Shown here: in pieces, positions 1,766 through 25,703 of the stretch
Layout: every line of letters begins with the position of its first letter
Numbering within the stretch: the stretch's first letter is position 1
Source: Nostoc punctiforme PCC 73102
GTDB taxonomy: Bacteria; Cyanobacteriota; Cyanobacteriia; Cyanobacteriales; Nostocaceae
NCBI RefSeq assembly: GCF_000020025.1
Contig: NC_010628.1
Location: 1-32,000 of the forward strand
Reading direction: 5' to 3'
Length of the DNA stretch: 32,000 nucleotides
The notes under the pieces: generated by a model
The model's input: the letters and a program-made list of their open reading frames with translations, nothing else
What the model was told of the DNA's origin: nothing
Database searches by the model: none
Program-made: the position numbers and the translations under genes

Positions 1766-2947
1766 ATGTCGAGTAAAAAGAAAGAACCAATTGGATGTGG
1801 ATGCTCAAATATTCCGATTTCTATAATCCTAATTATCTTAGGAGGTGGTTATTGGTGGTTTAGCCAGAAAGGATATCCAGAAATTAGCAAGTTTTTAGAT
1901 AATAGCAAAAATATAAACATACATATTCCTAAGCCTACTAAAACTAGTTTTTCAACTATTAATACAACTCCTTATATAACACCAATTCCTTCTTTAGCAA
2001 GCACTCCAACTTTTACTGATAATCCGAAAATAATCCCAGATAAAAAAATACTATTGCTTCAAACAGCTTGGGAGAAGAAAGTAATTAGAGGAATTTATTT
2101 AACTCGCTACCAAATTACCAATAATGCCAACGAACAAACGATTCGTGAAAGAGTTCGTTACTATCACTCTCAAGGAATTAATACAATTATTCATGGCGTT
2201 TGGGGTAATGGTTGTACTATGTACAATAGCGAAGTAATGCAGCAAACTTTCGGGTATAAAAGTTGTCCAAATCAATTTCAAGAGCAATGGTTAAATTGGT
2301 TGATTGATGAAGCACATAAGCAAGGAATGCAAGTTCATGCTTACTTCGAGAAGGGAATTAAAATAGATAAGAATAGCCCAATTTTTGATTTAGCAATTTT
2401 CCGGAAATGGATTGTTCCAGGAGTGGATAAAACCTACTCTGGAATCGATCATTATGTACTTGATGTAGAAATTCCTGAAGTTGCTAATCTTTTTCAAAAT
2501 ATCTTAGTAGAGTTTGTCAAAAAATATCCTGATATTGATGCAGTTCAATGGGATGATTATCTGGGTTATTATGCTGAATTATCTGGAAAAGTTGACCGCA
2601 CTGCAAATTTAACTAAATTTGTACAACAAATGGTAACTTCTATGAAAAAAGCTAATCCATCAGTAAGTTTTGATATTTGCCATCATAACCCCTATTGGGC
2701 TAAAAAATATTTTGCAGCTGACTGGGAAAAATGGGGTGCAGATCGTATATTTATTCAAGCTTATAATGATAGTAATTTTGTTGAAGAGTTAAATTATGCT
2801 CAAAAATATGCTGGAGTTGCGATTACAGATCGGCAACTGGGTCGGTTAAAAGAATTAGTTGATAACCCAAAAATTAAAAGCATCTTAGTTTTTCCATTTT
2901 CGGGAAACCCAGAAGAAACAGCTTCTAGCTTAAAAAACTCACTGTGA
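1766..2947 (+). CDS. membrane-anchored putative glycoside hydrolase (GHL10/DUF187, YngK-like)
   Basis: 393-aa ORF with an N-terminal hydrophobic anchor (IPISIILIILGGGYWWF). The following TIM-barrel-like region has motifs I associate with the family-10-like hydrolases (IRGIYLTRYQ, GINTIIHGVWGNG, AHKQGMQVHAYFE, DAVQWDDYLGY). The family call is from memory only. Confidence 0.6.
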   Translation: MSSKKKEPIGCGCSNIPISIILIILGGGYWWFSQKGYPEISKFLDNSKNINIHIPKPTKTSFSTINTTPYITPIPSLASTPTFTDNPKIIPDKKILLLQTAWEKKVIRGIYLTRYQITNNANEQTIRERVRYYHSQGINTIIHGVWGNGCTMYNSEVMQQTFGYKSCPNQFQEQWLNWLIDEAHKQGMQVHAYFEKGIKIDKNSPIFDLAIFRKWIVPGVDKTYSGIDHYVLDVEIPEVANLFQNILVEFVKKYPDIDAVQWDDYLGYYAELSGKVDRTANLTKFVQQMVTSMKKANPSVSFDICHHNPYWAKKYFAADWEKWGADRIFIQAYNDSNFVEELNYAQKYAGVAITDRQLGRLKELVDNPKIKSILVFPFSGNPEETASSLKNSL

Positions 2948-3094
2948 TGTGGGAGCAAATATTCTGAGTGAGGAAACAAAAGATAATGAAGTAAGCGTGA
3001 TTTAAAAGAGTTTTTAAGAGTGCGGAAGAGTAAGTAAGTTGGCACAATAAAATCAAACTATGTAAAGAGAAATGAACTAGCTAAAACCCTTATA

Positions 3095-3155
3095 CCTATT
3101 GACTGTTGCCTATTGCCTTATCCCAACGACAATTATTTACGTCCACTTACTTAGT
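3095..3155. repeat. copy A of a ~61-bp direct repeat (CCTATTG heptamer-like lead plus 46-nt core)
   Basis: Core 3110..3155 matches 5160..5205 at 44/46 by hand alignment. The 15 nt to the left match 11/15. Confidence 0.8.
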
Positions 3156-3194: not shown

Positions 3195-4685
3195 TTAAAA
3201 CAATTCAAAATATTCTCTTTGCTCCCAATTAGTCACCTGCTTTAAATACTCTTCTGGTGGCTGATCGGCGACGGACTGCAAAAAGCGATTAATTTCACTC
3301 TCTTTCATCTTAATGATGAAGTTTATGAACTGCTGCCCCATTTTTTGAGGAAAAAGTTCGCTTTGGCTCAAATATGAAATCGCCTCTGACAAACTTTTGG
3401 GTAAGATCGGATTTTCTGTAGTATAAGGTTCCTCTGTTGGAGAGCCAGGATCAAGTTTACAATCTACACCATCTAAACCAGAAATCAATTGCGATGCCAT
3501 ATAGAGATAGGGATTGGCTGCTGGTTCTCCAACTCGGTTTTCAATGTGGGTACTGGGGTCATCAAAACCGCCTTGTAATCTAATCATTGCCCCTCGGTTT
3601 TCCAATCCCCACCCCGCACGGTCAGGGGCTAGGGAATAAGGTCTAAATCTTTTGTAGCCGTTAATTGTTGGGGTTGTGAATACAGAAGCAGCATTGGCGT
3701 GTTTAAGAAGACCACCAACGAAGTGTTTAGCTAAATCTGACGTGAGGGTTTGGGAGTTTGCAGACATAAAAGCGTTCTCGCCTGTGGTAAGGTCTACAAG
3801 GGATTGGTGCAAATGCCAGCCATTAGAAGAAGAACCTTGCAATCCTGGACGACACATAAATGATGCGATGTAACCTTGTTGACGACAGATTTGCTTGGTT
3901 GCCATTCGAAATATCATCATTGTATCGGCAGCTTGCAATGCAGGAATCGGGTCAAAAGTAAATTCAAATTGACCAACACCCCCTTCGTTTTCTACACTCC
4001 TTAAAGGCAATTTCATTTCAACTAAATTCTCTGCCAGAAGGCCCAGCAAATCTTGAATCTCTGGATTGTGTGATTCTAAAAGGTATTGGAAGCTATGGTC
4101 TACAGCGCTAACTTTAGCAGGTTCACCGGGTTTTCCAGAACTACCAACATTAGCGATCGCTAACATCGGATCTTCCAACTTTGCTAGATACCACTCAACT
4201 TCTAAGCCGACAATATGCTCCAATCCTCTTTGATGTAAATCTATCAATGATTGGCGCAAAATACCGCGACTAGAAAAGGGCATTGGCTGACCATTCTGAA
4301 AGTACTCATCACAGAGAATAAAGCCAGTACGTTTTGCCCAAGGCACAATTTTGAATGTATCAGGATCAGGAACAGCCACAAGATTTGGCGCACCTGTCAT
4401 CAAAGGCATATCTAAACTACCACCGGGAACAAATGGGTTAAATACTATTGCACCACCAGTATCTAACAGGAATGTCCCTGTGCTGATTTGCATACCGTTT
4501 TCCAGGGCGCTGAAAAAAGCTTGGGGTAAGAGTGACTTACTGCGAACAATGCCATGCTGGTCTGACCAAGCGGTACGAATCAACAATAAATCCTGTTCTT
4601 TAACAATAGTCTTAATTTTTTCAGATGCTTCTTTTTGGATTTCTGTCCACAGGTGATGACGCTCAATAAATCCAGGTCTTTTCAT
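3195..4685 (-). CDS. glutamine synthetase family protein (GlnA3/PuuA-like gamma-glutamyl ligase)
   Basis: 496-aa ORF with an N-terminal beta-grasp-like region. GS catalytic-domain motifs are present (FMCRPG..SSNGWHLHQSL, IENRVGEPAANPYLYMASQLISGLDG). Confidence 0.88.
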   Translation of the reverse strand: MKRPGFIERHHLWTEIQKEASEKIKTIVKEQDLLLIRTAWSDQHGIVRSKSLLPQAFFSALENGMQISTGTFLLDTGGAIVFNPFVPGGSLDMPLMTGAPNLVAVPDPDTFKIVPWAKRTGFILCDEYFQNGQPMPFSSRGILRQSLIDLHQRGLEHIVGLEVEWYLAKLEDPMLAIANVGSSGKPGEPAKVSAVDHSFQYLLESHNPEIQDLLGLLAENLVEMKLPLRSVENEGGVGQFEFTFDPIPALQAADTMMIFRMATKQICRQQGYIASFMCRPGLQGSSSNGWHLHQSLVDLTTGENAFMSANSQTLTSDLAKHFVGGLLKHANAASVFTTPTINGYKRFRPYSLAPDRAGWGLENRGAMIRLQGGFDDPSTHIENRVGEPAANPYLYMASQLISGLDGVDCKLDPGSPTEEPYTTENPILPKSLSEAISYLSQSELFPQKMGQQFINFIIKMKESEINRFLQSVADQPPEEYLKQVTNWEQREYFELF

Positions 4686-5137: not shown

Positions 5138-5205
5138 CCTATTGCCTATTGCCTATTTTCTATTGCCTTATCCCAACGACAATTATTTACGCCTACTTAC
5201 TTAGT
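5138..5205. repeat. four tandem CCTATTG-type heptamers plus copy B of the 46-nt core repeat
   Basis: The heptamers are cctattg, cctattg, cctattt, tctattg at 5138..5165. Core 5160..5205 matches 3110..3155 (44/46). The right end supplies the last codons and the stop of the aminotransferase. Confidence 0.8.
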
Positions 5206-6388
5206 TTGAGTAAACGATCGCTCGCTGCTTGTAATGTCTCAGGTGTCTTGCTAAAGCAGAATCTGATCAATGAATGGCCTTTTTCTGGTTGGCTGAAAAA
5301 GCTGGAACCAGGAACTACGGCAACACCAATATTTTTAATTAGATGGTAAGTGAATTCAATATCTGTTTTGTAGCCAAATTTAGAAATATCTGCAAGAACA
5401 TAATAGGCTCCTTGGGGAAGGAAGTAAGGAATGCCAACTCCATCAAGTATCTGTAAGATCGAGTCTCGCTTCTGGTGATAAAGTTTGCCTAGTTCTTCAT
5501 AATAGGATGGTGGTAGTTGCATCGCGGTAACTCCGGCTCGTTGCAATGGTGCAGGAGCGCCAACGGTAAGAAAATCATGGACTTTGCGAATGGCTCCCGT
5601 TAATGCGGGGTTTGCCAAAATGTAACCAACTCGCCATCCGGTGACACTATAAGTTTTGGATAGACCGTTAATGGTAATGGTGCGTTCTTCCATACCGGGA
5701 AGGGTCGCTAGGGCAATATGTTGAGTGCCATCATAGAGAATATGTTCGTAGATTTCATCTGTGAAGGCTAACACATCCCATTTTTGACAAAGTTCAGCAA
5801 TTAAGGTGAGTTCTTCACGGGTAAAAACTTTGCCGGTGGGGTTATGGGGTGTGTTGATAATAATAGCTTTGGTATTAGCATTGAAAGCTTGATGCAACTG
5901 TGCTTCATCAAATGTCCAATGGGGAGGATGCAGTGTTACGTATCGGGGTGTAGCACCAGCTAAAATCGCATCGGGGCCGTAGTTTTCGTAATAAGGCTCA
6001 AATACAATTACTTCGTCACCAGGATCGACTGTCGCCAGCATTACAGATGCCATTGCTTCTGTGGAACCACAGGTGACGGTGATTTGGGTTTCAGGGTCGA
6101 TATCTAAGCCGAGATACCAACGAACTTTGCTAGCGATCGCATGACGAAATGCGCGTAGACGTGAAGCGGCTTGTCGTCAGACATCGCCCCAAGTAATGGC
6201 ATACTGGTTGACATCTGCCTCTATTGCTTCATTTGCTGCCTGTTTCAACTCCAAGGGACATGGAAAATCAGGGAACCCTTGAGCCAGATTTACTGCACTA
6301 TATTGCAGTGCCACCCTTGTCATTTCCCTAATTACCGACTCTCTAAACTGGTCTGCCTTCGCTGATATTTTTTTACGCCCAATCTCAC
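5193..6388 (-). pseudogene. class I/II PLP-dependent aminotransferase (YbdL/methionine-aminotransferase-like), disrupted
   Basis: ORF 5193..6053 encodes the C-terminal two thirds (NTPHNPTG, SKTYSVTGWRVGY). The same frame continues upstream through TCGSTEAMASV and QGFPDFPCP but contains an in-frame TGA at 6177..6179. The conserved N-terminus (KADQFRESVIREMT) has no in-frame ATG/GTG/TTG. A GTG at 6386..6388 with a GGAGG 7 nt upstream would become in frame if the T7 run at 6368..6374 (A7 on the coding strand) were one base longer. Confidence 0.8.
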
Positions 6389-6567: not shown

Positions 6568-7167
6568 ATGAAATCTTTGCACCGTCCCGATCTTTATAGC
6601 TGGTCTAATTTCAATCCGGCAAGAAATATTGATTTCAATGGGATTGCCTGGATTCGCCCAGATGGAAACATCTTGATTGACCCAGTAGCCCTATCAAACC
6701 ATGATTGGAATCATTTGAAATCCCTCGGTGGTGTAGTCTGGATTGTGCTGACGAATTCTGAGCATGTCAGGGCAAGTAAAGATATTGCCGATCAAACTTA
6801 TGCTAAGATAGCTGGTCCAGTGGCAGAAAAAGACACTTTTCCCATACCTTGCGATCGCTGGCTGTCTGATGGTGAAGAATTTGTACCAGGGCTGGAGGTG
6901 ATTGAACTCCACGGCTCGAAAACTCCCGGTGAATTGGCTCTGTTACTGGAAGAGACAACTTTAATTACAGGGGATTTAGTCAGGGCACGTAAAGCAGGTA
7001 GCTTAACTATATTGCCAGATGACAAGCTACTGAATCGAGAGGAGGCTGTTGCTTCTGTTCGCAGGTTAGCAGAACTGAGTCGAGTTGAAGCAGTGTTGGT
7101 GGGGGATGGTTGGCCCGTCTTCCGCGATGGACGCGATCGCTTAGAGGAACTTGTAGCGACGCTGTAA
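6568..7167 (+). CDS. MBL-fold metallo-hydrolase family protein
   Basis: 199-aa ORF. The pattern FNGIAWIRPDGNILIDP..VVWIVLTNSEHVR..LITGDLV is typical of small cyanobacterial metallo-beta-lactamase-fold proteins. The metal-binding motif looks atypical, so activity is uncertain. Confidence 0.8.
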   Translation: MKSLHRPDLYSWSNFNPARNIDFNGIAWIRPDGNILIDPVALSNHDWNHLKSLGGVVWIVLTNSEHVRASKDIADQTYAKIAGPVAEKDTFPIPCDRWLSDGEEFVPGLEVIELHGSKTPGELALLLEETTLITGDLVRARKAGSLTILPDDKLLNREEAVASVRRLAELSRVEAVLVGDGWPVFRDGRDRLEELVATL

Positions 7168-7214
7168 ATGGGTGGGGCGATGCCTATGTTCAGGGCTAGC
7201 CCTACGCTCAATTT

Positions 7215-10200
7215 TTACTGAGTGTTAATATCATCGCAGAGGGTGCGATCGTTTTTCATATTAGGGTTATTTTTCAGATAACCAGATGCCAATTTACAGG
7301 CACGCTTGAGTAAATCATCTAAATTATTATTAAGATATATTTTTCCCTCATTGCTATTAAGCTCAATTGTCTTATTGGTATTAAGGTTAAATCGCTCGCC
7401 TAAGAAAGAACTGATGGGATAGAGTAAGTAAGGATCTTTCGTAAACCAACTATTGAGAAAATATAGACCTGTATTATAATCAGAACCAACAGCTAGCATT
7501 TTGTTGTCATTATCAAAACTTAAAGTATTACTGCTATAATCGGTTTTTAAGGGTTCAATTTTTCCATTATCTAAATTCCCCAATTTAGCAGAAGAACCAC
7601 TAATAAAGGCAATTTTCTTATCATCAGCTTGGAAGCGTATATTTGTAATTTTATCAGGATCGCGGATGGTTGGTTTTTGTAATTTACCATCAAGATTCCA
7701 GAGTCTTATAATTTGATCGTCACTAGCAGAAGCAATAATTTTCCCATCATGAGTGAAACTCACACTATTGACTTTATCACCGTGTTTTATAATCGGTTTA
7801 AGCAATTTACCATTTCTATTCCAAAACCTTACTGTTTTGTCGTCACTAGCAGAAGCGATGATTTTTTTATTAGGGCTGAACGCAACACTATTAACCCAAT
7901 CAGTATGACCCCATAAGGTTGCTAGCGGCTTGCCTTTTAAATCCCAAAGTTTTAAACTATCATCTTTACTAACGGAAGCAACTGTTTTTTTATTAAGACT
8001 AAACCTAATAAAAGAATCTATATTATTACATGAAAAATTTGCGTGACCTTTAATAGATTTTAACTCTTGAAACTTGGCACTATCTTCAATACTCCAAAAC
8101 TTCATAACATACTTAGAGCGATAAATCTCATTCGACCAATAAGTTTTGCAGCTAGTAGCACCAATGATTTTTCCATCAGAACTAAAGCTAACCTTATCAA
8201 TGCTAATATCATCATTTATTCCATTACTAAATCCTGAAAGTTGTTTGATAAAATTACCGTTACCGTTATAGATGTTCACAGTGTTATCAGCACTTGCAGA
8301 AGCAATATATTTATTATCAAAACTAAACGCAACATCATTAACACCTTTAATGTGTTTTTGTAAAGTTAGAGGTTCATAGTTATATTTTTTAAGCAAAAGC
8401 TGATTTATATCCCAAATTTTTATAGTATTATCAGCACTGCTAGTTACAATTTTTGTACCATCATGGCTAAAATCTACTTTTGTGATTGTGTCATTATGTC
8501 CTTTGAGTGTTGCGCGTGGTTCTCCTTCAACAGTCCATAGCTTGACAGTATAATTCTGGTTAATAGAAGTAATGTACTTGCCATTAGGATTAAATTTTGC
8601 GCTGATCATGCCATAGTTATCAATAGATTGAAGCGGTTCGCTATTGCTGATATCCCAAATTTTTATCTCACCACTATTAGCGCTAACTGACATGAGCTTT
8701 TTGTCATCTGGACTAAACTCTACGCTTTGTACCTTGGCATTATGTCCAATCAATGGCTTAACGGGAGTACCATCACTTTTATAGAGTTTAACTAAATTGT
8801 CATCACAGATAGCAAGCATCTTGCTATCATGACTAAATATAACAGTTGTAACTTTATCACTATCTGTTTTCAAGGCTTGAATTAAGCTGCGATCGCGGCT
8901 ATTCCAAAGTTGCACTTTATTGTCATCACTGATAGTAGCTATTATCTGACTATTAGGGCTAAAGCTCACATTGGTAACTTGTTTTGTGTTTCCCTTTAAA
9001 TGTCCTATAAATGTTCCGTCACTACTGCGCCAGAGTCTAACAAAATTATCTGCACTGGCAGCAGCAACCAAATTACCATCAGGGCTAAAGTCAATGGTTG
9101 TGATCTTATTGGTGCTACCTTTTAAAGTAATTTCCTTGTTGGTATCTAGTTTCCAGAGCTTTAAGATATCGTCAGGGCTTCCAGTTGCAAGTGTTTGATT
9201 ATCTGGACTAAAGCTAAGAATTGAACTATCTCCTCGGATAGTTTTAATGTGAGTGCCATCACGGTTTTGAAGTTCTATACTATTGTCAGAACTGCCAAGA
9301 GCGACTGTTTGACCATCAAAACTAAACCTTATTTTCCTATTTATATCTTCATCTCTATCGGTTCTCTGGAACGAAGGTAATTTATTGTCGTCAATATCCC
9401 AAATCTTCACAACTCCATCTTTACTAGCTGATGCAAGTAGCTTGCTATCAGGACTGAAGCTTGTATAAGTAATGCTATCATCATGTTTAAAAATATTGTA
9501 ATTAGAACATTGACCTTGAAATATTATAGTTTCAAAGAAAGTTTTCTTATCTTCACTATCCTGGAATATGCTTAATTGATTATCAAGACTATTATTTAAA
9601 AAATCTTTCAATCCAAATGAATTCTTACAAACATTTTCAGCACTTTTGATGAGGTGTGGTTTATCATCAGTAGACCAAACTCTTAGGTTTCCCTGTTTAT
9701 TAAACAAGCTAATAGCATCACCACTGTTGTTGAAATTCATGGTAAATGTGCCAGAATCATAAATCTCAGTAGGCTTATTTTCAAGTTTTTTTGGTGTCAG
9801 TTTCCAAAGTTTAACAGTGTCATACCGTCCCCCTGTAGCAACTGTCTTGTTGTCAGGACTAAAATTTACAATTATGTTTTTGTCATTAAATCTTTGTGGT
9901 AAGCTCTTAAGCTTACCATCTTCCCAACTCCAGATTTTAACTGTTTTATTCTTAGTAGTAGTAGCTAGTAGTTTATCGTTAGGACTAAATGTAATGAAGC
10001 CTAGACCATCTTTATCGATTTTCAAAATTTTTATTGGTTTAAATTTAGGAGTACTCCAGCTTTTACGTTCTGGAATATTCCAGATTTTTGCATTACCATC
10101 TTCGCTGACGGTAGCTAACATTTTTCCATCAGAGTTGAAGCTAATAGATGTTACACTTTTTTTGTGAGCTGACCAGATCCTTTCTTGACCATCAGAAATA

Positions 10201-13200
10201 TTCAATATTTTGACTTTGCCATCTTCACTTGCCGTAGCTAACATTTTGCTATCTTGGCTAAAGCTAAGGGCTGTAATTGCTTTATCATACCCTTCTATAC
10301 GGTTGATTTCTTTAATTTTATGAATTGCATTACTCAGATTTGAAATAACCTTTAGCCGAGTTTCAGGTATCACCCCTATTGATAAAAACTTTAGTTTTTT
10401 ACCTACTTTAATAGCTGATACTAGCTCTCCAAGCCCTATGTCATCTTTTGAAGAAATATCTGATGTCAGAGAAGTGTTGATGTAAGCTGCTGTAACCCCT
10501 ACTGCAATTACACTTATTGCAGTTATTAATCCTATTAATGTAACAGTTTGTTTGCGTGCAGTTCTTAGCTGTTGTGTCAAAACCTGATTAAGTTTGGCTT
10601 CGGTGAGTTTTCGTTGTTCTTTCTCCTTCTCTAACTCAGCAATTAATCGGGCTGATTGTTGTTCACGAACAAATGGTACTAAATAGTCATGAACTAATTG
10701 ATATCTATCAGCCGGAAATCCTGGTACTTGAAATACTAAGCCTGATTTCACCAGGATTTTCAAAATTAAATCTAATCTTGCAGGCTCTAATGCTAAATCT
10801 GCTTCTAATTCAGCACGATTTTTCAGAGGACGAGTATTATTTTCATCAGTTAACAAATACAAAACTAGCTTGGCGAACTGTTCGTTATTGTTACCACAGT
10901 CTTTAACTACTTCTTCTAAGAATCGCCCTACTAATTTTTCTTTAGGGCCTTGTTCTTGGTACTGAATCAAAGTTGTAATTTTCTCAGTTTGTAGTTGTGC
11001 TCCTACAACTTGTAATTCAATGGGGCGAATTTCGTTGAAATCTCTAGCTAAATCTCGTACTAGCTCATCAATTAGCGGTGGCTCTAGATAAAACTGAGAA
11101 CTTTCTGTTAAGCTTTGAATTACAGAGCGAGCATCTTCAGGCGAAAAGTTCCCTAAGTAATAAAGAATTTTTTTATCTAATATGTTGTTATCAATTGCAT
11201 CCAAATGAGTTAGGCGATTACACTCTAGTAAATAATGGAGATAATCTTCTCTAAGAGAGAGAATAATTTTTACATAAGGAATATTAAGACAATCTCGGAT
11301 AAATTCAAAAAAAGGTCTCCTTTTATCTTGGTCTTTATAAGCAAAGAAGAACTCTTCAAACTGGTCAAAAATCAGAACAGTTAACAAACCTTTCTCTATA
11401 TTTTTGTTCAACTCTTCTACAAAACCTGCCATCGAGTCTAAGAACAGAGGAAAACTTAAGCCTCTAACTTCTTCTAATGATTCTACGAAGCAAGTTCCTA
11501 AAACTTTTGTCCAATCTGTATAAACTTGCAACAGAACAGGCACGACATCACGAGCATCTATGGCTCTTTGTTTTAAAGCTGGTAATAGCCCTGCCTGAAC
11601 CAGGGAACTTTTACCTACTCCTGATTGACCATAAATGACCGTCAGTTTGTGGTCATCACGACTAATTCTTTCAATTAATCGATTCACATCTTGCATTCTT
11701 CCAGAAGCAGCAATCTCTTGGGTTACTGCTGCTTTTGGATCGGGTACTGCAAGTCCAGGATTAATAACTTGGAGTTTAGATTGTAAGCGTCCTGCGCCTA
11801 CAAAAGCTCGTAGTCCATACTGTTGCTCAATTGAACGTTGCTCTAGTTTAACTTGGAATGCTTCTAAATAGTTACCTTGGTCAAAGTAGAGCGATCGCAG
11901 TTTCGCCAAAATGCGAATATATAGTAGTGGATCGTGTTGAGGATTACTTTCAGAACGAGCGGTTTCTAAATTAGCGATCGCCTCTGGAATCTGATTGAGA
12001 TTTTGTTCAGCTTCTGCCAATAAAAGTAAGTATAAATTTTTATAAGATTTGCGTTCCCACTCCCAATTAATTATTTCTTCTGAAGAAATATTGGCATTCG
12101 TTTGTAATGCTAGTTCTGCATATTCTTTAGCCTCTACCCATTGAGATTTTTTCAGCACTACCTCAGCCATTAATCCATAACTGTAGCCAAGTCTGATTGG
12201 TTCAGGGTAAATTTGGTGTAGCTCAATAGCTACTAACGCAACTTTTTCTAACTCATCCCACGCTTCTAATCTGGTTAAAACTTCACCCCAAGCGTTAATA
12301 AATTTTGCTGCTAAATTTGGGTATTTGTGCTGCCTAAAACCCTCAACACATTTTTGAAAGTAATCTTTAGCTTTTAGACAAGCTTCGTAATATTCAGAAC
12401 GATGCAAAATCGCATACTGTTCCCACCAAAAACCAAGATGCCAAAGTAAACATCCGTAACGTTTCAAATCATCAGATGACACATTTTGTTTATTTTTGAC
12501 TTTCTTTTCCCAAACAGTTATACTTTGCTCATAATAATTTTTCGCTTCAGATTTATGTCCATTAGCATCTGCTTCCCGACCTAGCAAAAATTGTAAGCTT
12601 GCCTCTAGTTCAGGCTCTAATTTTTCTATAGATATTTGTAAATCCCTAACAGCAGATTCAATTTCCCCTAAATGGAGAATACCAAGGTCAAGATTGAGGT
12701 AAGCATTATCGAGAAACTTTCCAGCACCGACGTTAAGAATTGCTGCAAATAGGGAATTAACAATTTGGTGCAGATTGTTGATTAACTGATTCGTAGCAAT
12801 TTTAAACTTAATTGAGTTACCTGTCCAACTCTTAAAATCAGGCATCAATTGAATCAATTTTTGGAAGGTTGGATCATTTACCCAAATAACTATCGGAAAC
12901 TGGAAATTCTTACGAAATTCCTCTCTTACCTGATTTGTAGAAATTAAAAGTTGGTCAATTGCATCTACTAATTCCAAATCAAATATCATCAAAGCTTGAG
13001 GTAGTTGATTTCCCAGGTTAGCTTCAATTGTCGTGTAAAGTGTTTTGATAGATTTTGACAGATGTAGCTCTCGAATCTCAACTTGACATTCTTCTTTGAT
13101 CTGCTGCACCATCTGGTCTCGCAAACTGCAATAGTTACAACGTGCCAAAATTAACGCAAAGTGTCCCTGAGAATTTGTAATTGAGCGGATTAGTTTTTTC

Positions 13201-13253
13201 AGGGAGCGTTCATTGTAGACAACTACATCTTCAGGTTGATAAGAGTCACTCAT
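7215..13253 (-). CDS. giant STAND-class NTPase with N-terminal unknown alpha/beta module, TPR-like region, hydrophobic helix and 21 WD40 repeats
   Basis: 2012-aa uninterrupted ORF. Walker A is [22 protein letters not shown] (GQSGVGKSS = nt 11604..11630). Walker B is VLIFDQFEE (nt 11352..11378). Helical TPR-like repeats span about aa 225-470. A hydrophobic helix [22 protein letters not shown] sits at aa 903-925 (nt 10479..10547). I counted 21 WD40-like units over about aa 985-1930, plus the C-terminal tail [28 protein letters not shown] seen in cyanobacterial WD40 proteins. Confidence 0.92.
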   Translation of the reverse strand: [2012 protein letters not shown]

Positions 13254-14554
13254 AGCTTAAATTTTTTCGATTCTGCGATCGCCGGGTTAATATCAAACCA
13301 GCGTCCGTCAACATCCCGGTATTCAAATAAAAACATACTTCGTAAAAGAGTTTGGTATTCGTCCTCTCCTTTGACATTATCCCTCTGTTGCAAAACTTGT
13401 AGCAGTAGCGCCCACTCGCTATCACTAATTGCTGATACCAAATCATCCCGATACTCACGGATGACCATTTCCAGACAGTCGCGTCCAATAGGGGGGTCAT
13501 CTTCTTGTAAACAACTGTAAAGCAAAACTAACAGATTTCGCACATGTCCACCACTAACTCGGCAAAGACGATCTAAGGTTTCATCTGAATCAAAAACTTC
13601 ATTAATGTGACTCAAACGTTGTGTTTCTCCTAGCCAGGGAAACGCCCGTGCTAAAACCATTTGTTGCAGTAGCTTCATACCTTCTAGGTTGTAGGTTCCT
13701 TCACGGTTTTTGACTGTCACCATTGGTAATACTACAGGTTTTATCCCGAAACGGTTAGTAAGAGTGCTTAATTCATTGGAGAAAATTAATACTAGGGGAA
13801 TGGTATAAACCAAATGACAATTGAGTTTTTTTAACTGCTCACCCCGATCAATGAACAGATATTCTGGCTGAGAACGGCCAGAGGCTTTAGGAGAGATATC
13901 GACGCGATCGAGATTATCAATAATTACCACTAATCCCTGATAACCTTGTAGCTTCAGTTGCTCTTTGGCACGCTCTAATACCTGTTGATTAATAGCTTCT
14001 AATATGCTACTAGTCCGAGGTTCTAGGTATTGGCGCAACTGGCTGCGGAGTCTGGGACTATCTTTAGTCTTGGCAGTGACCTTACCAATTCCCAAAGGTA
14101 ATGAAAATTCAAATTCTGGAACTACTGGTGTTTGTAAAAAATCTGCAATTTCATTAAACAAATCGACAAAGTAGCTTGGTCTAAGTTTGATTTTAACCTT
14201 TTCTAAACTGGCGCTAACTTGACGAGTTATTGCTAACAAAATATCGCTGACATCCACATCTGCCATATCTAAATCAGCACTGGACTCAAAGTAAACTACA
14301 TGAAAGCCTTGCTTTTCTAATTCATCTTTGAGTCGAAATAGTTCTGTAGATTTACCACAGCCAATATGTCCAGTGAATAATTGGCAGGTTGACTCATCTG
14401 GTTGATTAGCGATCGTCCGCCGTAAACGTTGAATTACATTGCCTCCACGAACTGGTGAGAAGTCAATATAGTACTGTTGGTCTTCTTTATTCTCAATTTT
14501 TAGAGTCTTGCTGGGATTACAGGCATTAAAAAACTTAATAGGGTCTAAAGCCAT
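13250..14554 (-). CDS. stand-alone P-loop ATPase (ORC/Cdc6- or STAND-like AAA+), upstream partner of the giant WD40 protein
   Basis: 434-aa ORF. Walker A is TGHIGCGKST (nt 14345..14371) and Walker B is LVVIIDNLD (nt 13907..13933). A sensor-2-like SGGHVRNLLVLL is followed by a short C-terminal helical, possibly winged-helix, region. GAGGAA lies 7 nt before the ATG. Its TGA (13250..13252) overlaps the ATG (13251..13253) of the next gene. Confidence 0.9.
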   Translation of the reverse strand: MALDPIKFFNACNPSKTLKIENKEDQQYYIDFSPVRGGNVIQRLRRTIANQPDESTCQLFTGHIGCGKSTELFRLKDELEKQGFHVVYFESSADLDMADVDVSDILLAITRQVSASLEKVKIKLRPSYFVDLFNEIADFLQTPVVPEFEFSLPLGIGKVTAKTKDSPRLRSQLRQYLEPRTSSILEAINQQVLERAKEQLKLQGYQGLVVIIDNLDRVDISPKASGRSQPEYLFIDRGEQLKKLNCHLVYTIPLVLIFSNELSTLTNRFGIKPVVLPMVTVKNREGTYNLEGMKLLQQMVLARAFPWLGETQRLSHINEVFDSDETLDRLCRVSGGHVRNLLVLLYSCLQEDDPPIGRDCLEMVIREYRDDLVSAISDSEWALLLQVLQQRDNVKGEDEYQTLLRSMFLFEYRDVDGRWFDINPAIAESKKFKL

Positions 14555-14702
14555 TACGGTTTCCTCTTACTACTTAAAAAATAAAAGTATAAATTATTGC
14601 TTAAAATTATTAATTATAGTTTCAGTATATACTAGTACATACAGATAAAAAATCTTCGTAAAGTAGAATCTCACTTACTTAAGCAAAAATTGCTACCAAA
14701 GA

Positions 14703-14775
14703 GATAGTAGTTCCATCTTTCGCAATACAAGCGATCGCTTAAAGGAACTTGTAGCAACGCTTTAAATGGTTGGGT
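14703..14775 (+). pseudogene. orphan, diverged copy of the last ~20 codons, stop and first ~10 nt of 3' flank of the MBL-fold gene
   Basis: 14731..14775 against 7133..7177 gives 40/45 identical. In the MBL frame the copy reads DSSSIFRNTSDRLKELVATL-stop, against DGWPVFRDGRDRLEELVATL-stop in the intact gene. There is no similarity further upstream, and an in-frame TAG lies at 14664..14666. Confidence 0.7.
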
Positions 14776-14843
14776 AGTACAGCTAGCTGTGCTACCCTAC
14801 AGGAGATTGTGGTTCTGATAGATAAAAAAGGCTGTAATAAAAA

Positions 14844-14863
14844 TTGTAATATGAATATTACAA
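14844..14863. promoter_or_regulatory. perfect 20-bp palindrome TTGTAATAT-GA-ATATTACAA upstream of ribD (candidate operator)
   Basis: ttgtaatat (14844..14852) and atattacaa (14855..14863) are exact reverse complements separated by 2 nt. The site lies about 120-140 nt upstream of the candidate ribD starts. Confidence 0.3.
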
Positions 14864-14984
14864 ACTGGTGCAATTTAAAACAGCTAATAACAGCGCCTGA
14901 ATTTGACTCTGTTTAATTAATTATCAGCAGCAAAGCGCGATTCTCCTGTGGAAAGGCTGCGCGATCGCGTGCAGAATATTTACA

Positions 14985-16226
14985 GTGTTGCCGCCTAAAA
15001 TTATGGATAATTCCCCAGTGGTCGCTCAAACAGATGCATCCTTACCAAATTACACTCAGGAAAATATACATCTAGTGGAGTCAGCAGTTATAAAAGAAAA
15101 GATCGGAACTGATTTTGACTCTCGCATGATGCTGCGGTGTTTGGAACTTGCTCGCCGCGCTTTAGGACGGACTTCCCCAAATCCTTTAGTGGGAGCGGTG
15201 ATTGTCAAGGATGGCGAGATTGTCGGCGAAGGGTTTCATCCGCGTGCAGGTGAGCCTCATGCAGAAGTGTTTGCTTTGCAAGCAGCAGGCGTTGGCGCAG
15301 CCTCTCCCCAGGAGAATCGCGCTCGTGGTGCAACAATCTATGTCAACCTTGAGCCTTGCAATCATTACGGACGGACTCCCCCTTGTTCGGAAGGATTGAT
15401 CCAAGCTGGAGTAGCAAAAGTCGTAGTGGGTATGGTTGATCCCAATCCACTGGTAGCTGGAGGTGGTATTGCCCGTTTACGTGCGGCTGGGATCGAAGTG
15501 TTAGTAGGAGTAGAAGAATCAGCTTGTCATCAGCTAAATGAAGCTTTTGTACATCGCATTCTCTACAAACGACCTTTGGGAATTTTAAAATATGCCATGA
15601 CTTTAGATGGCAAAATTGCTACTACCTCTGGTCATAGCGCCTGGGTGACAAGCCAAGAGGCCCGCAGTGAAGTACATCAACTACGGGCGGCTTGCGATGC
15701 AATAATTGTCGGCGGAAATACAGTCCGACAAGATAATCCTTATTTAACCAGCCATCATCTGGAAGCACATAATCCCCTGCGGGTGGTGATGAGTCGTCAT
15801 CTCAACTTACCGGAAAGTGCCCATCTGTGGAAAACTGCGGATGCTCCAACTTTGGTGTTGACTCAAAAGGGCGCTAACCCCGATTTCCAAGAACTGTTGC
15901 TCAACCAGGGGGTGGAAATCGTGGAATTAACATCACTTACACCAGATAACGCAATGGCGTACTTATATGAGCGGGGTTTTTGTAGCGTCTTATGGGAATG
16001 TGGCGGTACCTTAGCTGCTAGTGCGATCGCTCAAGGAGCAGTGCAAAAAGTTTTGGCATTTATTGCCCCAAAAATCATTGGTGGTAGCATTGCTCCCACA
16101 CCAGTGGGCGATTTAGGTTTTACTACCATGACTGAGGCATTGTCTCTAGAACGTGTTCGTTGGCGTGTAGTAGGCTCAGACTGCTTGGTGGAGGGTTATT
16201 TTTCCCAAAAAGCCAATAGTCAATAG
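14985..16226 (+). CDS. ribD: bifunctional riboflavin biosynthesis protein RibD (pyrimidine deaminase / uracil reductase)
   Basis: The deaminase zinc motifs HAEVFAL and LEPCNHYGRTPPC are present. The reductase domain has GILKYAMTLDGKIAT and ECGGTLAAS. The ORF-track start at 14985 is GTG. The ATG at 15003 or an internal Met near MMLRCLELARRALG may be the true start. Confidence 0.93.
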   Translation: MLPPKIMDNSPVVAQTDASLPNYTQENIHLVESAVIKEKIGTDFDSRMMLRCLELARRALGRTSPNPLVGAVIVKDGEIVGEGFHPRAGEPHAEVFALQAAGVGAASPQENRARGATIYVNLEPCNHYGRTPPCSEGLIQAGVAKVVVGMVDPNPLVAGGGIARLRAAGIEVLVGVEESACHQLNEAFVHRILYKRPLGILKYAMTLDGKIATTSGHSAWVTSQEARSEVHQLRAACDAIIVGGNTVRQDNPYLTSHHLEAHNPLRVVMSRHLNLPESAHLWKTADAPTLVLTQKGANPDFQELLLNQGVEIVELTSLTPDNAMAYLYERGFCSVLWECGGTLAASAIAQGAVQKVLAFIAPKIIGGSIAPTPVGDLGFTTMTEALSLERVRWRVVGSDCLVEGYFSQKANSQ

Positions 16227-20534: not shown

Positions 20535-20799
20535 TAGATATCTGGTCAAAAGAGGCAGGGGGCATACTTCTCTGCGAGAGGCTGCGCCCTAAGCGTAGCT
20601 ATGCCGCAGGCTTTACGACTGCGCTCAGTACAAGGGGGGCAGGGGGAAAGACTGAGACGGGGCTTTTACTTTGCCCCAGTTCAAGCGTCCTGGAAGAACG
20701 GGGCTTCTTTATCGGGTTTTGGGAAAAGGTTAAAGGGGAAGGGTAAAGGCTTTTCTTTGCCTTTACCCCTTCGCCTTATTCTTTTTTACCAGATATCTA
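20535..20799. mobile_element. MITE-like ~265-bp GC-rich element bounded by ~18-bp inverted repeats
   Basis: tagatatctggtcaaaag (20535..20552) matches the reverse complement of cttttttaccagatatcta (20781..20799). The first 12 nt are identical, followed by one mismatch and one indel. The interior contains a GGGGAAGGGTAAAGGC hairpin (20735..20772). Confidence 0.45.
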
Positions 20800-24516: not shown

Positions 24517-24627
24517 GTGAATTAATAGCGCTTCTTGAGCTTTATGGTTTCGTCTTTGGCTTTCTCAGAGAGTAGCCATAATCCGGTTTGGATAAGGATT
24601 CTTTACTTACCTTGTAGTTTCAGAAAA

Positions 24628-24668
24628 GGGGAAGGGGTAAAGTTTGAATTACCCTTTACCCCTTCCCC
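24628..24668. repeat. perfect 15-bp-stem hairpin of the GGGGAAGGGGTAAAG repeat family
   Basis: ggggaaggggtaaag (24628..24642) and ctttaccccttcccc (24654..24668) are exact reverse complements with an 11-nt loop. A related imperfect hairpin lies at 20735..20772. Confidence 0.65.
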
Positions 24669-24959
24669 TTTCCCCCTTAACCAAACCGTATTGAGAGTAG
24701 CCGCTATAAATTTATGTATGCAATGCTCTAATTTCTAAATGCTTTTTCAATATATTTTAGTTTGCAGTGATCTAGATCACACCATTTTATGAGTAAGAAT
24801 AGATAGTATCAAGCACATAAACACCTTAAAACTGTCAAAGGCAGGAGCTAAAAAGCTCTACCTCTTACAGGTTAAAAGAATAGATGATACCTGTATAAGT
24901 ACTAAAATCACCAGTTTTTAATTCTTACCAAGTCATCTAAAAAAATGAGAACAAGGTAA

Positions 24960-25703
24960 ATGGTGATGTTTGAACTCTTGCTAAAAAATCAATTAAGCGC
25001 TCCCAAAAAAGTAAAATTTAAAAATGAGATTTTGGCACGAGTTCAAGAACAAAAGTCAGGAACTTCAAATGACGAAATAAAATTTTATAAAACTGAATTA
25101 CTTCCCTATTTTATAAAATTGAGCCAACACAATCCTGTTTTCAGTGTTACGGAACAATTACGCCTTTTGGTAGGTGTTTGGACACCAATATGGTCTACCA
25201 TATCATTTCATGAAAGTTTACCGAGAAGAATACAAGAACAGTCGTTTCAAATTTTCCAGCATGATGGTTACTGTGCCAGTGTTGCTCGCTATATAATGGG
25301 GAAAGAGCCATATTTATCCCAGAGTTTTCACTCAAGATTACCCGCTTATGATTTCATGGTAATCCAAAAATATGGAGTTCAAAATGGTAAATGGTATCTT
25401 CAAAATATTGATAGATTTCAGGCTTTTAAAAATAGAGAAATTCCTCTAAATTTAGAATCAGTCTGCACCTGGTTTACTGATGTGCTTAACACTAAAGTCA
25501 AACGGAATGCGTCAAAATTGGCTTTATCGAAAGCTCTCGAATTAGAAAATATAGAGATAAATCATACAAATTATTTAAGAAAAACATCCTTAGCACCTTC
25601 TCAAGTGTTTCAGCATTTATATATAGATAATGACTGGCGACTTGTAAAAACGCAAACAGATGCCTCACATCTACCTAGTTACACAATTTCTGTGAAGAGG
25701 TAA
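24960..25703 (+). CDS. hypothetical protein, weakly PAP/fibrillin-like
   Basis: 247-aa ORF in AT-rich DNA. The segment KNEILARV..LSQHNPVFSVTEQLRLLVGVWTPIWST resembles the fibrillin pattern (..LE..NP.p.p...LL.G.W.LLYTT). The assignment is weak and from memory. Confidence 0.5.
   Translation: MVMFELLLKNQLSAPKKVKFKNEILARVQEQKSGTSNDEIKFYKTELLPYFIKLSQHNPVFSVTEQLRLLVGVWTPIWSTISFHESLPRRIQEQSFQIFQHDGYCASVARYIMGKEPYLSQSFHSRLPAYDFMVIQKYGVQNGKWYLQNIDRFQAFKNREIPLNLESVCTWFTDVLNTKVKRNASKLALSKALELENIEINHTNYLRKTSLAPSQVFQHLYIDNDWRLVKTQTDASHLPSYTISVKR

Follow-up and report, generated by a model that had tools for sequence, protein, structure and literature searches.

Structure of the locus

In the cyanobacterium Nostoc punctiforme PCC 73102, the interval between a gene for a metallo-β-lactamase (MBL)-fold protein and ribD is occupied by two minus-strand genes, one for a P-loop ATPase and one for a STAND-WD40 protein, and this pair is bracketed by the 3′ end of the MBL gene and a second, orphan copy of that end. 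We analysed this arrangement in the first 32,000 nt of contig NC_010628.1 (the window; all position numbers are those of the whole window, on its forward strand) and at the equivalent place in related genomes. The original prediction, made from the window alone, took the duplication as the footprint left by the arrival of the ATPase/STAND pair. We consider it rather more probable that the duplicated end is a fossil attachment-site (att)-like scar at an ordinary variable islet, and that it predates the present cassette, which would have replaced an earlier cargo made up of ndh2 and doxX.

The repeat itself proved real. Ungapped comparison at an offset of 7598 gave 58 identities over 73 positions (7105-7177 against 14703-14775) and 40 over the 45 of the core (7133-7177 against 14731-14775); a repeat finder recovered the pair independently as its family D5, and the second copy is found by BLASTN at E = 1e-10 and by nhmmer at E = 3.6e-9. 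We refer to the repeat as R, to its live copy as R1 and to the orphan as R2 (Table 1). The translations of the two copies, DGWPVFRDGRDRLEELVATL and DSSSIFRNTSDRLKELVATL, had been given correctly, as had the coding differences in the core (GAG/AAG, GCG/GCA, CTG/CTT), the in-frame TAG upstream of the orphan (14664-14666), and the statement that the only credible open reading frames (ORFs) between the copies are 7215-13253(-) and 13250-14554(-). The Glu/Lys difference also exists, but it is the live gene that changed: Lys (AAG) is the consensus of the genus, and the window alone has GAG.

The orphan is in register with the MBL reading frame and stop codon. To its left, 35-55 nt align to the MBL gene no better than shuffled sequences do, such that no additional MBL homology is seen there. 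On the other side, the homology of R1 to the orphan stops after TAAATGGGTGGG, which is also where its homology to native alleles stops; beyond 7177, where a weaker similarity (gctagccctac/gctaccctac) had been noted, the ungapped similarity of the two copies is at chance level, and cross-locus comparison indicates that the stretches downstream differ in origin, one being the cassette's own end and the other a native hairpin. Neither copy of R folds better than its shuffles (z = -0.4 and -0.2), no attC-like structure is present, and the number of R copies per locus, as counted by nhmmer over the loci, never exceeds two. For annotation, positions 14700-14774 are best treated as a pseudogene fragment that should be joined to no ORF.

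Table 1. Features of the interval from the MBL gene to ribD, in window coordinates
Feature	Position	Strand	Basis
Intact MBL-fold gene (Lactamase_B_5, 199 aa)	6568..7167	+	Pfam PF14597, E = 9e-116, full length
R1, live copy: last 21 codons of the MBL gene, TAA and 9 nt of 3′ flank	7102..7176	+	Alignment, repeat finder, nhmmer
Cassette-specific left end, 'class A' flank GCGATGCCTA..GGGCTAGCCCTAC.., 3′ tail of the STAND gene	7177..7214	.	Cross-locus comparison
nSTAND1 NTPase, 2012 aa: TPR-like N-terminal region, predicted membrane helix, ~1000 aa of WD40	7215..13253	-	Pfam
P-loop ATPase, 434 aa	13250..14554	-	Weak AAA_22/ATPase_2/KAP matches
Cassette-specific upstream (promoter) region of the ATPase operon	14555..14632	.	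Conserved among five cassette-bearing loci
Relic of earlier cargo: last ~5 codons and stop of doxX, doxX 3′ flank, ~35-nt stretch	14633..14699	+	Local alignment
R2, orphan copy of the MBL 3′ end: displaced original end, decaying	14700..14774	+	Alignment, repeat finder, nhmmer, shared derived bases
Native hairpin GGGTAGtACAGCTAGCTGTGCTACCC, directly after the MBL stop in unoccupied alleles	14772..14797	+	Cross-locus comparison
Native MBL-ribD intergenic region and ribD leader	14798..14984	+	Collinear with native alleles, conserved in cassette loci
ribD (deaminase and RibD_C reductase)	14985..16226	+	Pfam

The unoccupied site and its occupants

A scan of the MBL protein against one genome per species yielded 80 loci, nearly all from Nostoc (labelled L001 and so on), onto which we mapped the neighbouring genes and the repeat; the 80 MBL orthologues in Nostoc are 88-99% identical. 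In the 2.56 Mb of related DNA so assembled, the R core is confined to MBL ends and orphan sites, and the repeat, the hairpin, the orphan flank and the cassette left end are each single-occurrence sequences within a locus. None of these four has a match among the plasmids in PLSDB. Thus the repeat is specific to this locus and not dispersed.

The commonest sequence 3′ of the MBL stop in the 80 relative loci is a conserved hairpin, GGGTAGCACAGCTAGCTGTGCTACCC, which is present as a single copy at the corresponding position in 55 loci and is strongly folded (z = -2.9). The predicted empty site does exist: at least ten Nostoc species, within one large clade, have the MBL gene with one R, then the hairpin, then ribD some 210-220 nt further on. 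When five such loci (L018, L080, L009, L012, L071) are compared with the window, the two BLAST blocks overlap by ~57 nt on the single R copy, the first block ending at 7171-7176 and the second starting at 14713-14718. In the window and in all other two-copy loci, the orphan is followed by the native hairpin and leader and the live copy by non-native DNA; because it is the orphan that keeps the native downstream sequence, the orphan is the displaced original 3′ end. The topology of the repeat is therefore that of attL and attR, with the orphan in the position of attR. An empty site may have been occupied in the past, since R1-R2 recombination would also leave a site that looks native.

The ATPase/STAND pair is accessory. 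It lies at the MBL-ribD site in 5 of 81 loci (the window and four other species: L002, strain UCD121; L016, strain LEGE 12447; L059; L064), and remnants of it persist in about seven more. The locus that is closest to the window by MBL identity (99%; L001, strain LEGE 12450) has neither cassette nor orphan nor hairpin, and an unrelated stretch of 87 nt replaces window positions 7176-14918. The orphan is carried by 17 loci with differing cargos, and at least six cargos have been found between R1 and R2 or ribD: the STAND pair, ndh2-doxX, an EAD1-trypsin/VMAP/MoxR/FGE set, a GT10 glycosyltransferase, a radical-SAM set and a polysaccharide cluster. In L069 the GT10 glycosyltransferase is inserted into the orphan itself. 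Neither the ORFs of the window nor any cargo variant has an integrase, recombinase or transposase domain detectable with Pfam.

The MBL-ribD intergenic region is, then, a hotspot of gene content in Nostoc, and, because the window begins with dnaA (167-1546), it lies about 5-13 kb from that gene. One of its occupants, in L058 (11301-18411), is a five-gene set placed between the MBL gene and ndh2 that encodes an EAD1-trypsin protein, a 140-aa ORF, an EAD1-VMAP protein, a MoxR-like AAA protein and a protein with lectin and FGE-sulfatase domains; the set is a conflict system of the vWA-MoxR type. In another large clade of Nostoc (L003, L006, L014, L019, L025, L031, L035, L043 and others), synteny ends after ..AAAAGGCTGTCAGAAGAA, ~75 nt past the MBL stop, where msrB and genes for a luciferase-like monooxygenase, a carbonic anhydrase, an FMN reductase and glcD/glcF-like proteins stand in place of ribD; a paralogous ATPase/STAND pair (61-67% identity) lies ~8 kb downstream in this clade.

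A probable older cargo behind the orphan

The ATPase/STAND pair is not the only cargo that the orphan accompanies. The same orphan, together with the same left flank (roughly 35-66 nt), stands behind ndh2 (type-II NADH dehydrogenase) and doxX in at least nine other species (L017, L026, L036, L054, L057, L058, L067, L078, L079), which speaks against the original attribution. Orphans of different species share ~35 nt of left flank (..AATGTCACTTACTTAAGCAAAAGTTGCTACC.AG) that has no significant similarity to the MBL gene, all nine of the full-length orphans have A at position 31 of R, where most live copies have C, and most have A at position 7. The shared derived bases and the shared left flank argue for a single origin of the orphan.

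A trace of the older cargo persists in the window. Local alignment of positions 14633-14697 with the doxX stop and 3′ flank of L079, L078 and L036 gave scores of 75, 59 and 53, against a shuffle maximum of 30. The DoxX C-terminus (..H-T-x-F-R/K-stop) is conserved in Trichocoleus, Leptolyngbyaceae and other distant genera, and for this reason the stretch in the window is a remnant of doxX and not the source of that tail. Because the orphan and its flank also occur behind ndh2-doxX and a relic of doxX lies in the window, the cassette appears to have replaced ndh2-doxX inside a bracket that already existed. The unit that was swapped accordingly spans about 7177-14632 rather than extending from repeat to repeat, to 14702, as first proposed: its right edge, at 14632/33, falls 66 nt short of R2, and these 66 nt, with the doxX relic, belong to the older layer.

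Halotia and Nodularia carry ndh2-doxX elsewhere, with neither the MBL gene nor R nearby, from which it follows that its position beside the MBL gene in Nostoc is derived. The duplication is thus most plausibly ascribed to the entry of ndh2-doxX. A donor for the doxX flank was not recovered, the DNA downstream of doxX in Halotia, Nodularia and Trichocoleus being unalignable with it. In three loci (L021, L048, L053) ndh2-doxX is followed directly by the hairpin, with no R2; a deletion of the orphan at a TAAA microhomology is suggested by a simulated product that is 79% identical to this state.

The ATPase/nSTAND1-WD40 cassette

Within the larger of the two cassette proteins, Pfam places nSTAND1 at residues 518-859 (E = 3e-32) and WD40/beta-propeller models at about residues 970-2012, and the N-terminal 520 aa yield only weak TPR matches and no recognised effector domain. 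The ATPase stop overlaps the STAND start, which marks the two genes as operon partners. Both ends of the unit are its own: the class A flank is confined to the STAND cassette or to its deletion remnants (L016, L059, L064, L027, L028, L038, L044, L047, L073), and the ndh2-doxX loci have no counterpart of the 14555-14632 region.

The two proteins have not diverged evenly. The STAND orthologues at this site (L002, L016, L059, L064) are 95-100% identical to that of the window over residues 1-1000, and the partner ATPase is 97-99% identical among cassette loci; the WD40 region (residues 1001-2000; window 7215-10250), in contrast, retains only 50-70% identity in L002 and L016. Judged from these alignments, the WD40 part looks like a rapidly diversifying sensor array, as is known for the WD40 repeats of fungal NLRs.

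Relatives of the ATPase at 60-85% identity are present on 80 metagenome contigs, where a STAND-WD40 gene follows wherever the contig reaches that far; none of these 80 loci has R, the MBL gene or ribD nearby. More distant relatives (52-62% identity) lie on plasmids of Acaryochloris, Calothrix and Nostoc, again with no R, MBL gene or ribD near the plasmid copies. On one of these, the conjugative plasmid pREB2, the pair is set amid HicAB and RelE/ParE toxin-antitoxin genes, a NACHT gene and tyrosine recombinases. Since the pair occurs at other loci and on plasmids without R, it is a conserved accessory module of which the repeat is no part. A plasmid origin of the present cassette was also considered, and discarded because PLSDB contains no nucleotide match to the cassette or the orphan region and only the 52-62% protein relatives.

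A search with PADLOC for known defence systems gave no hit above noise (only HEAT-ARM_XIII, through the repeats), NCBIfam returned nothing meaningful, and for the ATPase, which has no family name, no matching solved structure was found. The domains and the genetic context suggest that the cargo is probably a STAND/NLR-like conflict (defence) module with the WD40 array as a putative variable sensor. As a biological object it may be of greater interest than the scar that surrounds it; a conserved ATPase is coupled to an nSTAND1-WD40 protein whose sensor half is 50-70% identical and whose remainder is 95-100% identical between species.

Decay and turnover

Neither the cassette nor the orphan is stably maintained. 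In four loci (L028, L044, L073, L038) a TCAA(T) microhomology marks the fusion of the cassette left end (7177-7211) with the opening ~30 codons of the ATPase gene, and L027 retains only the last 50 codons of the STAND gene. The orphan is partly deleted, split or interrupted in nine loci (L059, L028, L073, L069, L044, L054, L057, L017, L067): 50 nt are lost in L059, only truncated forms of it remain in L028, L073, L054 and L057, a HIP1-to-HIP1 fusion joins it to the ribD leader in L044, and in L017 it is interrupted by a miniature inverted-repeat transposable element (MITE) with a TACAGGAA target duplication (L017 12760-12950). The later junctions have short microhomologies, with overlaps of 3-14 nt.

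The bases of the orphan have changed unequally in the cassette-bearing loci. Its left 31 nt (14700-14730) differ from the genus consensus at 12 positions, ten of them GC-to-AT (L002, L016 and L064 included), and its right 35 nt (14731-14765, from the HIP1 octamer onward) at only 2-3; this asymmetry is not seen in the orphans of other species. A higher starting G+C content of the left half and possible selection on HIP1 are possible causes.

Small palindromic MITE-like elements are frequent in this neighbourhood, and related palindromes lie at window positions 20718-20785 and 24625-24685. In class-D alleles a GGGGAAGGG-type element replaces the native intergenic region (L001 10609-10695, L005, L008 and others).

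Base composition and HIP1 sites

The WD40-coding part of the cassette had been described as looking compositionally foreign, with one sampled line of ribD at about 60% G+C as the term of comparison. Computed over the whole features, the cassette has 36% G+C in a window of 40%, other genes of the window (1766-2947, 24960-25703) have 33-34%, and ribD has 48%. Tetranucleotide deviation reaches z of ~2-2.4 over the WD40 repeats only, and the ATPase gene and the N-terminal half of the STAND gene have z < 0. The cassette contains four HIP1 octamers, where 0.1 would be expected by chance, and the whole window 27; the HIP1 sites in the cassette are a cyanobacterial signature. The cassette is accessory but not compositionally foreign.

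HIP1, for which Chi-like or uptake-sequence-like roles have been proposed (bioRxiv 10.1101/2024.09.10.611283; 10.64898/2026.06.24.733823), recurs at several breakpoints of the locus. The conserved core of R opens with a HIP1 octamer (GCGATCGC), three cargo classes along with L004 and L063 have their divergence point exactly at the end of ..GGGGCGAT, half of a HIP1 site, and a deletion in L044 fuses two HIP1 sites. As a general breakpoint, HIP1 found no support in an all-against-all survey of the 81 loci: 4 of 380 indel events have it at the empty-site junction, against an expectation of ~0.8%.

A further junction of this kind lies outside the MBL-ribD interval. The minus-strand class I/II aminotransferase gene (5193-~6350) has an in-frame insertion of 27 nt, GTCTGACGACAAGCCGCTTCACGTCTA on the coding strand, at about 6150-6176; it contains a TGA, is centred exactly in a HIP1 site (GGCGAT|...|CGC), and splits the gene into a 286-aa ORF and an N-terminal piece. 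L001 shares the disrupted reading, and other species have an intact gene of ~390 aa.

Proposed history of the locus

The history that we favour would begin with an ancestor in which the MBL gene was followed by the hairpin and then by ribD. A segment carrying ndh2-doxX would have entered this site through one reciprocal exchange located in the terminal ~75 nt of the MBL gene; the topology of the exchange is evident from the alleles, and its mechanism may have been Campbell-type integration of a circle by a recombinase since lost or, equally, RecA-mediated integration of a circle or homology-facilitated illegitimate recombination. The incoming DNA would have supplied the present 3′ end (R1), and the original end (R2), with the hairpin, would have been displaced to the far side. 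In one lineage, as the remnants indicate, the ATPase/nSTAND1-WD40 operon would then have replaced ndh2-doxX by illegitimate recombination, with one breakpoint immediately past R1 (7176/7177) and the other 16 nt within the 3′ end of doxX (14632/14633), R2 being inherited unchanged. The decayed alleles point to subsequent and repeated loss of the cassette and of R2 through microhomology deletions, MITE insertions and further cargo swaps, and recombination between R1 and R2 would give back an apparently virgin site. Alleles may now spread or revert by homologous recombination; the cassette, itself devoid of mobility genes, is most likely carried from strain to strain together with its flanks, by homologous recombination after DNA uptake.

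Several points weigh against this history or limit how much of it can be read. The doxX remnant is identified from 13 of 16 matching bases upstream of the stop and from a clearly homologous 50 nt downstream. The alleles of L021, L048 and L053 could be ancestral and not products of deletion. In a neighbour-joining tree built from 528 nt of MBL sequence, the native alleles, those with R2 and those with the cassette are interspersed, a pattern that fits recurrent loss and/or recombination; the tree is weak, being poorly resolved and probably affected by recombination, so that the number and order of events are not fixed by it. Site-specific, RecA-mediated and illegitimate routes yield one and the same product and are hence not separable here. 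Finally, the divergence point after GGGGCGAT that several cargos share could hint at a site-directed process.

The model originally put forward treats the 7.6-kb ATPase/STAND cassette as an integrative element in its own right, which entered the 3′ end of the MBL gene, brought a replacement end, and later lost its integrase. It has in its favour the attL/attR-like topology, the existence of empty sites, and the presence or absence of the cassette among close relatives (it is absent in L001 despite 99% MBL identity). Topology, empty site and the accessory character of the cassette are to this extent upheld; what does not hold is that this cassette gave rise to the duplication. The orphan, with its flank, also accompanies ndh2-doxX cargo, a doxX remnant intervenes between cassette and orphan, related modules elsewhere have no repeat, and a recombinase is encoded in none of the five full and ~7 partial copies, all of which make the model unlikely. 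Its observation that no integrase, transposase or terminal inverted repeat is visible was sound: the window encodes no integrase or transposase, no inverted repeat was found at 7177/14632 or at 7105/14775, and no variant has terminal inverted repeats. A related proposal is that the MBL 3′ end serves as a recurrent attachment site for recombinase-less cassettes, integron- or satellite-like, with the recombinase encoded elsewhere in the genome. The variety of cargos (at least six between R1 and R2 or ribD) and the divergence of three cargo classes at one base after GGGGCGAT would be natural under such a scheme, which we nonetheless judge decidedly improbable: all orphans are of one origin and have the doxX-side flank, the right junctions of the cargos are scattered and do not coincide with R2 (one falls within R2, another within doxX), R lacks an attC-like fold (z = -0.4, -0.2), no locus has more than two copies of R, and the orphan is freely deleted. 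If entry were instead mediated by a host factor that works at HIP1 or close to it, the terminal ~75 nt of the MBL gene would be a recurrent door for cassettes without recombinases, an integron-like exchange site without an integron; with no enrichment of HIP1 at breakpoints, the three local HIP1-centred junctions may be coincidence, and we give this version little credence.

The remaining alternatives concern the orphan alone. It might have been kept for a function, as part of the ribD leader, as a terminator or processing site, or as the promoter of the ATPase operon, and thus not be a neutral scar; the near-constancy of its right 35 nt (2-3 changes, against 12 in the left 31 nt, in cassette loci) and the strongly structured, conserved hairpin that adjoins it could be so explained. 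Such a function is, however, very improbable: native and class-D alleles all lack the orphan and yet retain ribD, it is truncated, split or interrupted in nine loci, it has no Rfam match, and 10 of the 12 changes in its left half are GC-to-AT, which fits neutral decay of a GC-richer stretch. That the similarity should be due to chance or to a dispersed short repeat, such as an element containing HIP1, is an idea encouraged by the octamer GCGATCGC at the start of the core, of which the window contains 27; it is next to impossible, and already refuted, given the BLAST E value of 1e-10, the restriction of the R core to MBL ends and orphan sites over the 2.56 Mb with no plasmid hit, and the register of the orphan with both reading frame and stop. 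The scar that predates the cassette is thus the explanation that we retain.

Relation to known systems

With integrative elements and genomic islands that insert at the 3′ ends of tRNA, tmRNA or protein genes and bring a replacement end, leaving attL/attR direct repeats, the locus shares a direct repeat of ~75 nt derived from a gene end, a gene that stays intact, a displaced original end with native downstream DNA, and a single-copy unoccupied site in relatives. It differs in that no integrase is present in the window or in any allele, that the cargo of the second generation did not create the repeat, which is decaying, and that the junctions of later cargo do not lie at the repeat. The cassette differs from transposons, insertion sequences and MITEs in having neither terminal inverted repeats nor a transposase, and in that the duplication is ~75 nt and not short; the locus differs from integron cassettes in that R is unstructured, is present in at most two copies, and is not accompanied by an intI-like gene.

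Another parallel is provided by flexible genomic islets, which are hotspots between conserved core genes whose content turns over by homologous recombination of the flanks. Conserved flanks (the MBL gene and ribD), many alternative gene sets, the lack of self-mobility genes and mosaic remnants are common to both, and we regard the locus as a case of ordinary genome-islet turnover. What it has in addition is the fossil of a duplicated gene end, and because this end was preserved, the order of events can be read and a route for precise loss is apparent. For the initial event, the homology-facilitated illegitimate recombination that accompanies natural transformation in Acinetobacter and Streptococcus is of interest: one homologous anchor in the MBL gene and one illegitimate joint would yield precisely this structure, and the microhomology at later junctions, such as TCAA(T), would also fit, although the process usually gives deletions, not a duplication of 75 nt.

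The cargo, for its part, resembles STAND/NLR-like systems. The nSTAND1 domain occurs in bacterial STAND/NLR-like conflict systems (PMC8195603, PMC10907252), and highly repetitive prokaryotic WD40 proteins have been described (PMC5587647); the cassette shares the central nSTAND1 NTPase and the long C-terminal WD40 array with its fast-diverging repeats, and on pREB2 its neighbours are toxin-antitoxin genes and a NACHT gene. It differs in lacking a recognised N-terminal effector, in having an obligate upstream P-loop ATPase, and in having no PADLOC match.

The locus therefore offers a clean and datable example of a cyanobacterial chromosome in which accessory modules that lack mobility genes, among them a probable NLR-like conflict system, have come to lie in layers, the fossil end giving the order: native site, ndh2-doxX, STAND cassette, then decay or loss. 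It also cautions that a flanking repeat is not necessarily the signature of the cargo that it currently encloses.

Other features of the window

A second direct repeat (D7; 3088-3155 and 5138-5205; 68 nt, 87% identity), which contains CCTATTG heptamers and is STRR-like, brackets a glutamine-synthetase-like gene at 3195-4685(-). It was considered as a second duplicated gene end and rejected, as it is a dispersed element that occurs also at unrelated positions in other loci. The glutamine-synthetase-like gene and the GHL10 gene upstream of it are found only in the window, L001, L002, L005 and L016. Rfam families and tRNA genes were sought in the window and none was found. Within the ribD region, 39 nt of the leader (14934-14972) are 87% complementary to 15285-15323 inside the gene, 312 nt apart, and the same pair is present in L001, L015, L026, L036, L044 and L052, though not in all loci; pairing of the RNA over a long range could account for it, as could a small inverted insertion in ribD.

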